From: a virus
Lineage: Duplodnaviria > Heunggongvirae > Uroviricota > Caudoviricetes
Direction: 5' to 3' (one strand)
DNA length: 5,784 nucleotides
IMG/VR virus record: IMGVR_UViG_2740892439_000005
The translations under genes and the position numbers were made by a program. Position 1 is the first letter of the stretch. Every line of letters begins with the position of its first letter. Shown here one piece after another: positions 437-5,784 of this stretch. The notes beneath the pieces were generated by a model. The model had not been told where the DNA came from. It saw only the letters and a program-made list of their open reading frames with translations, and searched no databases.

Positions 437-1084
437 TCAGCGACCAATCACCACAACCTGACCACCATCCCCTTCGTCTGCCGTGCTGATCTCCTGAGAA
501 ACCACGCGTGACCCCACGCGCATTTCACCGTACAGAACCGGCAGAACATTGCCCTGGGCAACCATGTTATCCAGTGAGGAGAAATAGGTGTTCTGCTTAC
601 CGTTATCCGTTGTCTGTGTACGGGGAGTTCTGGCTTTCGGTGCCAGCATCTGCGCCACACCGCCAAGGATCATACTGGCCCCCGCAGCATACATGCCCGA
701 TAAAGCCGCAGCTCCCAGCCAGCCTGCAGGGTTCCACCACGCCACTGCAATCAGCGCCGCACCCAGCACCGCCTGAAACACACCGCCACTTTTTGCTCCC
801 GCAAGACGCGGCACGATGTGGATCACGGCACCATTTTTCAGCGGCTCATTAAGACGGGCTGATAATTCGTTTTCGCCTGCATCACGCCCGGCAATCCGTA
901 CCTGATACCAGCCGTCGCTCAGTTTCTGACGAAACGCCGGGATCTGCATGGCCAGCGCCCGGATGGCTTCGGACCCCGTTTTCACTCGAAGGTCGATGCG
1001 GCGGCCAAATCGTTGCAAATCCCCGTAAAGGCAGATGCGTGCCATGCCCGGTGACGCCAGAGGGAGTGTGTGCGTCGCTGCCAT
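437..1084 (-). CDS. I: Tail assembly protein I (lambda gpI homologue): N-terminal ubiquitin-like domain, diglycine at residues 100-101, hydrophobic C-terminal domain
   Basis: ORF-track 215-aa protein MAATHTLPLASPGMARICLYGDLQRFGRRIDLRVKTG...GQVVVIGR matches lambda gpI from memory at both N- and C-termini, with a divergent Gly/Ala-rich hydrophobic middle. ATG start at 1082-1084 with GAGG ~12 nt upstream; TGA stop at 437-439. Confidence 0.92.
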   Translation of the reverse strand: MAATHTLPLASPGMARICLYGDLQRFGRRIDLRVKTGSEAIRALAMQIPAFRQKLSDGWYQVRIAGRDAGENELSARLNEPLKNGAVIHIVPRLAGAKSGGVFQAVLGAALIAVAWWNPAGWLGAAALSGMYAAGASMILGGVAQMLAPKARTPRTQTTDNGKQNTYFSSLDNMVAQGNVLPVLYGEMRVGSRVVSQEISTADEGDGGQVVVIGR

Positions 1085-1725
1085 TTGTCGGTGTACCTCT
1101 CTCGTTTGCTCAGTTGTTCAGGAATATGGTGCAGCAGCTCGCCGTCACCACAGTAAATGGCGGCATGATTCGGCACCGATGAACCAAAGCAGCACAGCAG
1201 CACATCGCCCGGTTGTGCTGATGACAACGGCACCTGATACAGCCCTGTGGCCTCCAGATTATCCAGATAGAGATTCTGACCGTGACGCCACCAGTCATCC
1301 CCGCGATGAAAATCCGGCATCTCAATCCCCGCCAGATGATAAGCATCCCGGAACAGCGTGTAACAGTCCGTCACCCCGTGCTCAAAGCGCCGCCCGGTGA
1401 GATGCGGCACACAGCGGAACTTATGAATCGCCCCCCGGCAGACCAGCCACCACGGCAAATCACTCTGCACCTGCAGCCGCCGGTCAGCCTCACTCAGCCA
1501 GGGCAGACCACCGGGGTGGCTGTGGACCAGCGCCACAATCTCACCCTGCATTTCTGCCTGCAGCCAGTCCTCCGGAACCATCCGGAAATAATCCTCCGGC
1601 TCACCGGAAATATTCACGCCGGGAAAATATCTTTCCCCCTCCGGCGCTCTCACCACGAAGCCGCACGACTCCGCTGGCGCACATCGCCGGGCGTGCGCCA
1701 GAATCGCTGATTCTGTCTCTGTCAT
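982..1725 (-). CDS. K: Tail tip assembly protein K (lambda gpK homologue): N-terminal MPN/JAMM (JAB) domain plus C-terminal NlpC/P60-like Cys-His peptidase domain; long 247-aa form (canonical 199-aa lambda form would start at ATG 1579-1581)
   Basis: 247-aa translation MTETESAILAHARRCAPAESCGFVV...HSHPGGLPWLSEAD...GVTDCYTLFRDAYH... matches lambda gpK from memory. JAMM motif H68-x-H70-x7-S78-x2-D81 is present, with a candidate upstream Glu in the E-x-C-G context (AESCGFVV, E19). The frame is open from an ATG 5 nt after the L stop. An internal ATG (Met49) has a GGAGGA Shine-Dalgarno ~10 nt upstream, so the start is ambiguous. Confidence 0.88.
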   Translation of the reverse strand: MTETESAILAHARRCAPAESCGFVVRAPEGERYFPGVNISGEPEDYFRMVPEDWLQAEMQGEIVALVHSHPGGLPWLSEADRRLQVQSDLPWWLVCRGAIHKFRCVPHLTGRRFEHGVTDCYTLFRDAYHLAGIEMPDFHRGDDWWRHGQNLYLDNLEATGLYQVPLSSAQPGDVLLCCFGSSVPNHAAIYCGDGELLHHIPEQLSKRERYTDKWQRRTHSLWRHRAWHASAFTGICNDLAAASTFE

Positions 1726-1730
1726 GGGAT

Positions 1731-2429
1731 TTACTGCGAAAGTTTGTTAATGGAAAGGTAACCGCCAAAGTTGCCGACGTTATTGCGAAACTTACAGCCG
1801 CTCAGGCATTTGCTGCATTTATCCTTCGTGATATCGGACGTCGGCTGGTCATATTCATCCGCGACAGCCGGACCGTGATAACCGCACTCATCACCGCGAT
1901 AGGTCCAGGTGCAGGTGTTGGCCAGCATGATACGTCCCGGAAAAACAGCGCCATCCGTTTCCGTCGGCGTGGACAGTACAAAGGAGGCACTCACCGCGCT
2001 CAGTTCGCTGCACTGCTCGATGCGCCAGCGGCTGATCACCTCCTGCTCCGGATCGGCGTCACTGTTTCCGTTGACGAAGTTCACCGCATCCAGAAAACGG
2101 GCGTAAACCTTACGCCGGACCACCGTTCCGCCGACCAGACTCTGCAGATCTTCCGCCATCCCGGTGACCATACCGTACAGGTTAGAAACCGTCAGCGTGG
2201 GGCGCGTACTGGTGCCTTTGCCATTCAGTTCAAAACCACTCCCCTGAATGGGATACGGCTGATACTGTCGCCCCTGCCAGGTGACCGGCTCACCTTTTTC
2301 GTTCTGCTCATTACAGAAAAAATAACGTTCTCCACCGACCTCTGTCAGGTCGATTTCCCAGAGCACCACGCTGGCCGACTGCTCCGCACGGGTGCATTCA
2401 TTCAGTGTTTCCTGTTGTATGTCCTGCAT
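1731..2429 (-). CDS. L: Tail tip assembly protein L (lambda gpL homologue), 232 aa, with C-terminal cysteine cluster
   Basis: 232-aa translation MQDIQQETLNECTRAEQSASVVLWEIDLTEVGGERYFFCNEQNEKGEPVTWQGRQYQPYPIQGSGFELNGKG... is near-identical, from memory, to lambda gpL and has the same length. C-terminal cysteines occur in TCTWTYRGDECGY and KDKCSKCLSGCKF. ATG at 2427-2429 overlaps the M stop by 1 nt. Confidence 0.93.
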   Translation of the reverse strand: MQDIQQETLNECTRAEQSASVVLWEIDLTEVGGERYFFCNEQNEKGEPVTWQGRQYQPYPIQGSGFELNGKGTSTRPTLTVSNLYGMVTGMAEDLQSLVGGTVVRRKVYARFLDAVNFVNGNSDADPEQEVISRWRIEQCSELSAVSASFVLSTPTETDGAVFPGRIMLANTCTWTYRGDECGYHGPAVADEYDQPTSDITKDKCSKCLSGCKFRNNVGNFGGYLSINKLSQ

Positions 2430-2767
2430 CAGATCACCACTTCGTCAAACTGACACGAAAAATCGGTATAGGTGATATGTTCTGTCGCTGACCACGTTCG
2501 ACACACCACTCTGATTTTTCTGTTAATACCCGGCGGGCGCCAAAAAAAAGATTTATAGCCTTCATGCCGGGCTAAAAATTTTTCAAATGAATCACGTTCA
2601 TTCGCCTCAACTTTGAAATCACAGGTGAAAACGCGCAGAGAATGATTAAGTCCATTTGGACTTCGTTGCTCATAACCATCGCCAAATCTTACAGTTTTTA
2701 TCGATGGTTTATTTTCTGTTTTCATTCCATCCTCTGGTAACCAGTGAAATTCTTCCGTATTAGCCAC
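2429..2767 (-). CDS. M: Minor tail protein M (lambda gpM family), 112 aa, GTG start
   Basis: Translation contains VRFGDGYEQR...GLN...KSFFWRPP...FDEVVI, which aligns with lambda gpM (109 aa; RFGDGYSQR...KSFLWTPP...FEQVVN as I recall) at roughly 45-50 percent identity. Position between the tape measure gene and L. GTG start at 2765-2767 is preceded by GGGGGA; an alternative ATG lies at codon 15. Confidence 0.85.
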   Translation of the reverse strand: MANTEEFHWLPEDGMKTENKPSIKTVRFGDGYEQRSPNGLNHSLRVFTCDFKVEANERDSFEKFLARHEGYKSFFWRPPGINRKIRVVCRTWSATEHITYTDFSCQFDEVVI

Positions 2768-3033
2768 TTAACATTCCCCCATCACGTCGCATATTTAACA
2801 GATTGCCCTGCACCCGCTGATCAACCATCCCCATAAGTGCTTTTATTGCCTGAGGCCAATCTCTCCATTCTGGCCGTCATTTTGAATAGTGATTTGGTAT
2901 ACAGGGGCATAGGTAATATCTCCGCCTCCATTACCACTTTTACTATTAATAGCTCTGACACCAAGAGAACCATCGGAAGTTCGTGTTAATGGCATAATGG
3001 CTTCCGGACCAGCCTCACCAAAAACACCAGCCC
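2760..3033 (-). pseudogene. H: Frameshifted 3' end of the tape measure gene: the conserved C-terminal ~90 codons are split across two other reading frames (shifts near plus 3030-3034 and 2853-2857); true stop TAA at 2760-2762
   Basis: From the break after ...PQFFAFAKG, the -1 frame reads [58 protein letters not shown] and stops at 2843-2845. A further -1 frame reads PQAIKALMGMVDQRVQGNLLNMRRDGGMLSG to TAA 2760-2762, overlapping the GTG of M. The joined sequence resembles the lambda gpH C-terminus as I recall it (...NDGTNGQIGPAALKAVYDM...QMRDGGLFSGGGR). Each break is explained by loss of one base in a homopolymer (plus ccc 3031-3033; gg 2854-2855). Confidence 0.7.
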
Positions 3034-5784
3034 TTTTGCAAAAGCAAAAAATTGCGGGGAATCATAAATACCGTTCGAATACATGTTCAATGACGGAGAC
3101 TCATAAACACCGCCCTTTGCATTCGGAATAAATTTACTAATAGCACTCCCGATAGTTCCTAAAATCCCCCCAGAAGAACTGTTACTAATGCTGTCGAAAA
3201 TCCCAGTAATTGAAGCCTTTAATGCTATTCGACTAAGATCCGAAATCACGGAAGTAGCGAAAGAACGAAAATTTGCCTTGCCTGTCGTGACAAAATCACC
3301 CAGCGCATCGGTCATTCCATCAAACATCTGAGTCGTGGTTGATTTTATCTGCTCACTGATATCCTTAGTGTCATCCAGCCAGTTATTGAATCCCTGGGAG
3401 GCACCACTAACCCAGTCTCCTGCCTGAATATCGAGCTGCTCGTTTTTCTGTCTGACAATGTCTTTTTCTCGTTCCAGAGCATCATTCAGAGCCTGCATTT
3501 TCTCCTGAAAAACATGATTTGACATCCCACGGGATTTATCTGCATAGTCACGTTCAAGTTGCAGACGCTGATTGTTATATTCACGTTCAATCCGCAGTAA
3601 TTCCTGCTGGCGTTGCTGATTTTTATCGCCAACCCCATAACCAGCAATCTGAATATCATACCCCTGTTGACGATTATCAATCGAAGCCTGCAATGAATCA
3701 CGCCATGCAGCTATTTCGGCGGATTCCTTGATTAGCCTGTTATTTTTTTCAATCGCAACATTTTTCTCCATCAACGCGGTTATTTCTTCCCGGTGTAAGA
3801 GAAGCGATTTCTGATCCTGGGTTAATTTCGATGACGGTCGTGACTCCAGGTTGGCAATCTGCTGACGCCACTTAACCAGTTCCTGTTCAGTGGAACTTAA
3901 TTTAACGGTTAATTCAGTTTGTGAACTTAGTAACGCATTCTGTTGATTCAGATGATCAATCATTCGTTGGGCAGCATCATCCGAATAACCTTTCGCCTTT
4001 GGTTGCTTTGGATCTTTATAACGCTCATTTATTTGAGCGATAAGATTATTATATTCTTCCTTTGAATACTGACTCTTTAGCTTTTCCAGTTTTGCAAGTT
4101 CACTAGCTCTCTGCTGCTCCCGGGTCTGATATTGTTTTGAAAAGGCATCTGCTCTCTGTCTGAGTTCAATTCCTTCCTGTTGTCGCTTGTTGTAATCGTT
4201 TATTGATGAATTTAGTACGTCCTGAGCAATTTTTTCTGCTTGAAGTGCGCCCAATTGCTGCTTTAATCGTGCCAGCCTTTTATTTTGAGCTCCGCCATCT
4301 CCAATGCCACCTAACCCGAAAACTCCGGGTCGGGTATTTTTTTCTATTTCATCAATTTGACGGAGAACATCTGAGATTTTTTGATCAAGGGAGGCCTCAC
4401 GGCCAATATCCAGCATGGAATCCCATGCCCATTTTGCGGAGTCTGCGACAGCTTTCCATGCAGTCTCAAGATAACCAAGATTTTCTTTAATCTGGTTGGT
4501 GCGCTGGATCATTGAGGATGAGTATGCTTCTGTCGCAATGCGGGCGGCCTCCTGCTGGTTCCCTTCATCCTGTAGCGCCTTAATCTGGTTATAAGTCGCA
4601 ATTGTCAGAAAATGGTACTGATCATTAAGTTTTGATATGGCACTGACAGGATCCTTTGCAATTTCACTGAAGTCATTAACCAGTTGTTCGGTTGATATTC
4701 CTGTTACTTCGCTCGTTTTTACTATCGCTGTCGTCACTTGCTCCAGCGAACTGCTCGCTACCTTTCCCGAACGCACAAGCTGGTTTAATACTGCCGCCGC
4801 AGCGCCAGTTGTCGAATCAGCCGCATTCCCGGCACGTTGAGCTATATCGGCCAATTGCCCGCTGGTTGTCCCCAACTGATTTCCGGTAAGAATAAGAGAT
4901 TTATTAAATTCGTCCTGCTCCTGAGAGCCTTTATAGTAAGCCAGCCCTAAGACGCCAACGGCTGCTGCGGCCAGGGTAAAAGGATTAATTAATCCCAGCA
5001 CATAAGAACCAACACCTTTGATCGCCGGGCCAATCCCACCGAACATATCTTTTAGCTGGCCGCCCTGCTGCATTAACACCATAAAAGGCGACTGACCAGT
5101 GGACAACCCAACAACAATATCCGTCATTTGTGCAGGCAACATGCGCATAGCAAAAGCCGTTTGTTTTGCCGACATTCCGGTTTTGCTTAATTGAGATTGA
5201 GTAACCTCAAGCTCACTCCGCATAGCACGAAGTTTTCCAGAAAGTTCCTCATACATTTCAGGAGAGAGCATCCCCTTAGCTTTTGCTTCATTGAGCTGTT
5301 TCTGTTGTTCTACCAGACGATTAAAAGCAGTTCCGACAGGGTCAAGTTGAGCAATCAGACGTTGCAAAGCAGCAACCTGTTCATCATGCGCTTTTGCTGC
5401 TTCTCGCTCTGCCTGAGCCTCTCCGGTAAGCTCTCGCCGTGTTTCCTGTATTTTTCGGCTATAATTCTCAAACTGAGAACCATTTATTTTCCCGGATGCA
5501 AACGCAGCATTAAGTTCATCCTGCTGTTGTTCAAGATTTCTTAGCGCCGCAGCCAGAGGGTCGATCTTGTCCAGCATTCTTTGAAAGGCCTGAGCCTGCG
5601 CTTCCTGCTGGGCGGCAGCAAGTTTTCCGGCCTTCTCGGCTTCTCTCTGCGCTTGCGCAACCCCGCTCAATTCCTCTGTGGTTTCATTAAGTTTACGGAC
5701 AAGAAATTCATATTCTTCTTTATCAATAAGCCCTTTATCGAAAAATTTCTTTAATTCAGAATAGCGTCGACCGACAGTATCAAT
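2986..5784 (-). CDS. H: Tail length tape measure protein (lambda gpH homologue), 5' partial; the reading frame is open to the right window edge (the track's 894-aa ORF begins at an internal TTG), and the 3' end is prematurely terminated by a frameshift
   Basis: Minus-strand frame is open from 5784 to the stop at 2986-2988 (932 codons in the window). Contains lambda-H-like blocks: [39 protein letters not shown] (lambda: [11 protein letters not shown]...GGQSPW..LLQQGGQVKDSFGG) and [28 protein letters not shown]. Also long Gln/Glu/Lys-rich coiled-coil-like stretches and hydrophobic segments typical of tape measure proteins. The last 16 residues ([14 protein letters not shown]) look like out-of-frame translation. 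Confidence 0.9.

Follow-up and report, generated by a model that had tools for sequence, protein, structure and literature searches.

Gene K of the lambdoid tail operon studied here very probably encodes one functional protein of 247 amino acids (aa) that starts at ATG 1725-1723, in which case the 199-aa gpK of the lambda annotation is an annotation artefact. This reading is drawn from comparison of sequences and from a predicted structure. An earlier note on the same DNA had pointed out that the K frame is open from this ATG, 5 nt past the L stop, giving 247 aa, and had concluded that the real product is the long form unless the two forms coexist; the ORF was confirmed to run to position 982, and profile search, conservation and substitution pattern back the long form.

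Gene K in its tail operon

The window, by which we mean the whole stretch of 5,784 nt that was analysed, contains the following features.

2986-5670, minus strand: gene H, lambdoid tail gene
2429-2767, minus strand: gene M, lambdoid tail gene
1731-2429, minus strand: gene L, lambdoid tail gene
1731-1733, minus strand: L stop codon TAA
982-1725, minus strand: gene K, 247-aa ORF (tail tip assembly protein K; JAB and NlpC/P60)
1723-1725, minus strand: K ATG (Met1), proposed true start, with a 5-nt spacer (atccc) after the L stop
1582-1725, minus strand: 48-codon N-terminal extension of K, predicted helix and two strands of the MPN fold
1669-1671, minus strand: Glu19 codon GAG (predicted JAMM general acid-base Glu, E-x-C-G), within PAESCGFVV
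1483-1524, minus strand: JAMM metal-binding part H68-S69-H70-x7-S78-x2-D81, sequence VHSHPGGLPWLSEAD
1432-1716, minus strand: Prok-JAB (PF14464) domain, residues 4-98, by Pfam and fold matches
1054-1395, minus strand: NlpC/P60 (PF00877, C40 peptidase), residues 111-224, with C121/H187/H199
1579-1581, minus strand: Met49 ATG, the canonical lambda K start, read here as an internal hydrophobic residue
1592-1597, minus strand: internal Shine-Dalgarno-like GGAGGA, formed by codons Pro43-Glu44-Asp45, ending 10 nt upstream of the Met49 ATG
1591, minus strand: equivalent of the G missing in the lambda reference (between J02459 nt 14266 and 14267)
982-1084, minus strand: overlap of the K 3' end and the I start, 103 nt
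437-1084, minus strand: gene I ORF

The tail operon has the order H, M, L, K, I, with J beyond the window. K thus has the position of a lambda-type tail tip assembly protein K, with L upstream and the ubiquitin-like gpI downstream. Many lambda-like phages, including lambda, 21, 434, HK629/630 and DE3, show 95-98% DNA identity to the window and have M, L, K and I annotated. The exact K protein of the window was found on 39 contigs, where it is labelled 'C40 family peptidase / phage tail protein', and it is 94% identical (14 differences) to lambda K when the latter is read with one extra G.

Some observations concern the neighbouring genes. The window is a mosaic, in which L-K-I are lambda-like and H and M are of a different type: in lambda proper and the majority of lambdoid records the match begins only ~20 nt before the end of M, and the H/M junction is matched by only about ten records. 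The tape-measure gene H is broken near its 3' end (window 2840-3040, minus strand) by two single-base deletions relative to the 99%-identical ON470609.1, one between 3036 and 3035 (GCAA[G]A) and one between 2856 and 2855 (TTGG[C]CCTC). The conserved H C-terminus, including KALMGMVDQRV, is readable only across three frames, which suggests that the source contains assembly errors or that the prophage is decaying. The start of I differs among public records (672 or 648 nt versus 573 nt). Where K overlaps I (K codons 213-247), the counts of variable sites at K codon positions 1, 2 and 3 over 88 unique relatives are 5/11/0. Since K position 2 is I position 3, the wobble is carried by the I frame, which supports the long I start (ATG 1084).

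The JAMM and NlpC/P60 domains

Both forms of K were searched against the JAB/MPN profile, a check the earlier note had suggested, and only the long form passed. Prok-JAB (PF14464; gathering cut-off 25 bits) aligns to residues 4-98 of long K over profile positions 4-103 of 114 with 50 bits (E-value 3.1e-13), whereas short K matches profile positions 64-103 only, with 22.8 bits. The 48-residue extension by itself matches profile positions 3-40. The NCBIfam desampylase model aligns to residues 3-114 of the long form only, but with 25.5 bits, far under the curated cut-off of 130, so this match marks the extent of the domain and not family membership. Sequence and profile searches of the PDB align K residues 3-106 to the MPN proteins 2KKS, 2KCQ and PfJAMM1 (5LD9/5LDA), and E19 falls on the E-x-C-G glutamate of each of these. 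The JAMM glutamate is thereby placed inside the extension; a position downstream of Met49 had been named as a possible refutation.

K contains the complete JAMM motif E-x(n)-H-S/T-H-x7-S-x2-D as E19, H68, S69, H70, S78 and D81. As had been proposed from the sequence, the H68-S-H70-x7-S78-x2-D81 part lies downstream of Met49 and E19, in PAESCGFVV, is found only in the extension. In AfJAMM, E22 serves as general acid-base and keeps the zinc-bound water in place; the zinc ligands are H67, H69 and D80, and S77 lies beside the oxyanion hole (PMC300881).

An AlphaFold2 model of K, for which an alignment of 94 homologues was the input, reached a pLDDT of 97.2 and a pTM of 0.91. The extension is modelled as a helix (residues 3-15) and two strands (21-27 and 30-36) with pLDDT 97-98. 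Foldseek matched the N-terminal half of the model to AMSH, PfJAMM1, Rpn11 and CSN5 with probability 1.00; superposition on PfJAMM1 gave a TM score of 0.66 normalised to the target and an rmsd of 2.7 Å, and the predicted structure has the MPN fold. By profile, motif and predicted fold K is a JAMM/MPN+ metallopeptidase with a predicted zinc/(iso)peptidase function. Since helix 1 and strands 1-2 lie within the extension, a protein starting at residue 49 would be devoid of three core fold elements as well as the catalytic glutamate, in line with the earlier claim that the short form would have an incomplete active site. The first 48 residues would hence be an integral part of the JAMM/MPN+ domain, to which they would contribute helix 1, strands 1-2 and the catalytic Glu19, the latter predicted to work with the zinc ligands H68, H70 and D81 and with S78.

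The JAMM domain is followed by a C-terminal NlpC/P60 cysteine peptidase domain with C121, H187 and H199 in its putative active site. NlpC/P60 (PF00877) matches K over its complete profile (1-105 of 105) with 47.7 bits at a cut-off of 23, and each of the three residues is kept in 93 of the 94 homologues, so both the profile score and a conserved Cys-His-polar triad assign this half to the NlpC/P60 (C40) peptidases. Foldseek matched it to MepS and Acd33800. The boundary between the two domains is at about residue 105-110.

Conservation of the extension and start of translation

An exhaustive HMMER search identified 2,624 relatives of K. In full-length relatives with 35-50% identity, query residue 3-10 aligns to the relative's own residue 3-15, and among the matches below 60% identity only P0202 and P0233 start later. 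The N-termini of the 94 homologues in the alignment (33-58% identity, chosen as full-length) fall a few residues from Met1. Conservation of the extension, proposed as a check, is evident: E19 and G22 are both kept in 93/94, C21 in 86/94, F47 in 89/94 and N38 in all 94 homologues. Further downstream H68, H70 and D81 are invariant and position 78 is Ser in 90 and Thr in four. Position 49, the canonical start, is mostly Ile (58), with Met in 13, Leu in 12 and Val in five. In distant homologues conservation does not extend to the final ~17 residues of K.

The pattern of substitution was determined at the DNA level. The K ORF of 247 codons (744 nt) is intact in all 108 full-length, ungapped relatives, so the frameshifts or stops in close relatives that could have spoken against a coding extension were absent from this set. 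Among the fetched loci the frame is broken in only three reference-derived lambda records and three decayed prophage copies. The latter are the K homologues of E. coli ECMA0423 (two copies) and Shigella flexneri SFBU1023, which have many indels and early stops, appear from their sequences to be decayed prophage remnants and are the only broken 247-codon frames apart from the lambda-reference ones. Variable sites in codons 2-48 are distributed over codon positions 1, 2 and 3 as 9/6/26 (chi-square p = 2e-4), and dN/dS is 0.30 for codons 2-48, 0.13 for codons 49-105 and 0.08 for codons 106-212. The substitution check on codons 1-48 suggested in the earlier note thus gave the pattern of a coding sequence: by these measures the extension is under purifying selection as a protein, somewhat more relaxed than the rest of K. 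A non-coding stretch or chance ORF was considered for the extension and is excluded by codon-position bias, dN/dS, conservation and the continuity of the domain.

The nearest in-frame stop upstream of the first ATG lies eight codons before it, and the N-terminal residues of the long form begin MTQTESAILAHAR. We looked for an alternative start between this ATG and E19; there is no ATG, GTG or TTG before codon 24, hence E19 can be included solely by initiation at the first ATG. This codon is present in 82/82 close relatives with a spacer of 4-5 nt behind the L stop, and none of these 82 has a Shine-Dalgarno sequence upstream of it. In 10/10 enterobacterial prophages with 46-50% identity the start codon of K and the L stop overlap in a TGATG, which by its sequence is the classic arrangement for translational coupling. 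Given an ATG directly behind the L stop and the missing Shine-Dalgarno sequence, initiation of K is probably coupled to termination of L, by re-initiation after the L stop.

The alternative that survives best is that K has two products, the 247-aa enzyme and, nested within it, a 199-aa isoform from Met49 with a dead JAB domain and a role of its own. We consider this unlikely. Met49 (ATG 1581-1579) is, as had been noted, preceded by GGAGGA (1597-1592) with a 10-nt spacer, and the contrast between this good Shine-Dalgarno sequence and the lack of one at the first ATG makes some internal initiation plausible. GGAGG is kept in 85 and ATG49 in 86 of the 88 unique intact close relatives, and nested in-frame products are known from lambda C/Nu3 and S107/S105. 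Against it, position 49 is Met in merely 13 of the 94 homologues and mostly Ile, Leu or Val in the others; the two remaining close relatives have CTG (Leu) there while their frame is intact, and in some other intact relatives GGAGG is disrupted by synonymous changes. The third positions of codons 42-48 are all variable among the 88 unique relatives, so there is no additional synonymous constraint at GGAGG. Nothing beyond the protein sequence appears conserved around the internal GGAGG and ATG49, and judged by these sequences the GGAGG is fortuitous. Moreover, the product would start away from the domain boundary at ~105-110, inside a fold from which helix 1 and strands 1-2 had been removed.

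NlpC-only versions of K do occur in some phages (Iyer et al., PMC1779556). A specific form of the two-product explanation, in which GGAGG-N10-ATG49 drives a nested 199-aa K, consisting of NlpC/P60 and a Glu-less JAB remnant, with a distinct tail-tip role in the close lambda clade, has a low probability in our judgement. If it were true, the textbook gpK would be genuine, as a minor product, and not purely an artefact. The single 247-aa product is the reading we follow below.

The lambda reference sequence and the 199-aa annotation

The 199-aa lambda annotation cited in the earlier note is found in NC_001416/J02459, where K is 14276..14875 and is separated from L by a gap of 148 nt. Alignment with the window, phage 21 and ev207 revealed that NC_001416 is short of one base. 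The missing G belongs between nt 14266 and 14267 of J02459/NC_001416, 10 nt ahead of the annotated start at ATG 14276. At this site the reference has GGAGGC-TATTTCCGTATG, other lambda sequences have GGAGGCGTATTTCCGTATG, and the deletion version at 14266, with no extra G, is GGAGGCTAT. The open upstream frame is therefore a property of the window and of every relative examined, but not of the lambda reference record, in which the missing base shifts it. The reference instead has an unannotated ORF of 76 codons directly after L, from ATG 14133 (14133-14363). Its translation reads MTQTESAILAHARRCAPAESCGFVV...GEPEA before going out of frame; the initial 45 residues correspond to the N-terminus of the K JAB domain, and the ORF exists because the missing G puts the 5' part of K out of frame.

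The extra G is widespread. Across the site, 15 contigs drawn from unrelated genome projects match NC_001416 without any mismatch and differ from it only by one extra G; nine of these cover the full 2,016 bp of L-K-I, and five further near-identical contigs also have the G. The 201-nt version occurs in LC730321, PV340536, KT232076, DE3, lambda imm21/imm434/h434, HK629/630 and others, and LC730321 has a length of 48,503 bp, i.e. that of the reference plus one. In the phage collection searched, a 100% match to the reference version was obtained only for J02459, NC_001416, OR474059 and OR974322. OR474059 is unannotated and OR974322 follows the reference coordinates throughout; both are assumed to be reference-derived. 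The 31-mer of the reference version has 0 occurrences in 2.9 million IMG/VR contigs, and among 9,613 matching places in 5,426 complete E. coli genomes none is identical to the reference version and none exceeds 99.5%.

From these comparisons the most economical reading is that the missing G reflects either a mistake in the sequenced reference or a change private to it. Omission of the G after nt 14266 in J02459 (= NC_001416) would have shifted the genuine 5' part of K into another frame, and with the upstream frame shifted Met49, preceded by a seemingly fortuitous GGAGG, would have been left as the first usable start, giving the 199-aa call. Alternatively, the missing G is a real frameshift of the lambda stock that was sequenced, and that phage made a split or truncated K. 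The deletion is common to OR474059 and OR974322, and a genuine frameshift in stf is known from laboratory lambda (PMC10695390), but K is required for tail assembly (PMC12617516), the G is present in the 15 lambda-identical contigs, DE3, the imm21/imm434 hybrids and resequenced lambda, and the deletion version is absent from the E. coli genomes and IMG/VR contigs searched. We regard a real frameshift as quite improbable. A programmed frameshift joining the two lambda frames was also considered and is unnecessary, as the extra G is in every independently deposited lambda sequence examined.

Assemblies from unrelated bacteria, among them Shewanella canadensis, Chromatium weissei, Neobacillus, Leeuwenhoekiella, Bradyrhizobium, Streptomyces and Vibrio, contain many low-coverage lambda-identical contigs, some of ~48.4-48.5 kb. 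The lambda-identical contigs are probably contamination with lambda control or ladder DNA.

The short form is represented by J02459 AAA96551, RefSeq NP_040598 and UniProt TIPK_LAMBD (199 aa, still in UniRef). It was subsequently copied by homology transfer: K of DE3 and of lambda imm21 is annotated as 199 aa despite the open upstream frame, and large clusters of 199-aa K exist among automated gene calls, where gene callers that weigh ribosome binding sites may favour the short call. The 247-aa (744-nt) K is already annotated in phage 21, ev207, the lambda record PV340536 and RefSeq entries named 'C40 family peptidase', and present-day pipelines call it as a matter of routine. That the 199-aa form is the sole product and the upstream 144 nt a non-coding spacer or chance open frame has this long-standing annotation (J02459, NP_040598, TIPK_LAMBD and several large clusters of calls) in its favour, but it can practically be dismissed in view of the third-position bias and a dN/dS of 0.30 over codons 2-48, the lack of indels and stops in 108 relatives, residues of the extension conserved down to 33% identity, a JAB domain that is truncated in the short form, and a 148-nt gap that is anomalous in an operon with abutting or overlapping neighbour genes.

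In the literature lambda K was listed among the JAMM proteins in 2003, from the 199-aa entry (PMC300881), and the JAB plus NlpC/P60 architecture of the K family was described in 2006 (Iyer et al., PMC1779556), although a 2020 review gives gpK as 199 residues with a peptidase domain only, residues 52-182 (PMC7291167). With the long form called in many records and the architecture published in 2006, the feature was already known; what is presented here is a database correction for a model phage and not new biology. An explicit statement that the reference lacks a base or that canonical gpK is truncated was not found in the searchable literature, and the supplements of a lambda-vir breseq study make no mention of 14266. 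The correction consists of inserting a G after 14266, by which the lambda reference genome becomes 48,503 bp; variant callers run on the uncorrected NC_001416 would call that base a mutation. Any gpK cloned, modelled or assayed from the reference would have a JAB domain with neither its catalytic glutamate nor three of its secondary-structure elements.

Predicted function and comparison with known systems

Tail assembly depends on gpK (PMC12617516), and mass spectrometry of virions did not detect the protein (PMC10721106), which makes a peptidoglycan-cleaving role during entry unlikely. Iyer and collaborators predicted that the JAB domain cuts gpI at the C-terminal glycine of its ubiquitin-like N-terminal domain and so releases that domain (PMC1779556), and of gpI in the virion only residues 135-223 are resolved (PMC10721106). 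In gpI of the window the ubiquitin-like domain would end in the Gly-Gly of ...PRLAGAKSGG. Following this literature, K would be an enzyme that acts in assembly but is not part of the virion, with its JAB domain processing this N-terminal part of gpI. Presumably only the 247-aa form can carry out this processing, and testing the prediction requires 247-aa K.

K of the window shares with the lambda K family the JAB plus NlpC/P60 architecture, the L-K-I order and the ubiquitin-like gpI downstream. It differs from lambda K only in that the canonical 199-aa database entry omits residues 1-48 owing to the base omitted from the reference; biologically there is no difference. The spacing of the predicted catalytic residues, E19/H68/H70/S78/D81, nearly equals that of E22/H67/H69/S77/D80 in AfJAMM (1R5X/1OI0; PMC300881). 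With the stand-alone JAMM peptidases AfJAMM, PfJAMM1 and DSY2949 (2KKS) K shares the motif and, in the model, the fold (TM 0.66-0.69 normalised to the target), but unlike these its JAB domain is fused to a C-terminal NlpC/P60 domain, is encoded in a phage tail operon and has gpI as predicted substrate. The C-terminal half shares full-length PF00877, the Cys-His-His residues and the predicted fold with E. coli MepS/Spr, whereas the published prediction for K is the processing of an assembly protein. Finally, K resembles lambda C/Nu3 and S107/S105 in that a longer ORF contains an in-frame ATG preceded by a good Shine-Dalgarno sequence, and differs from them in that conservation of the internal start is confined to the close lambda clade and in that this start does not fall on the domain boundary.
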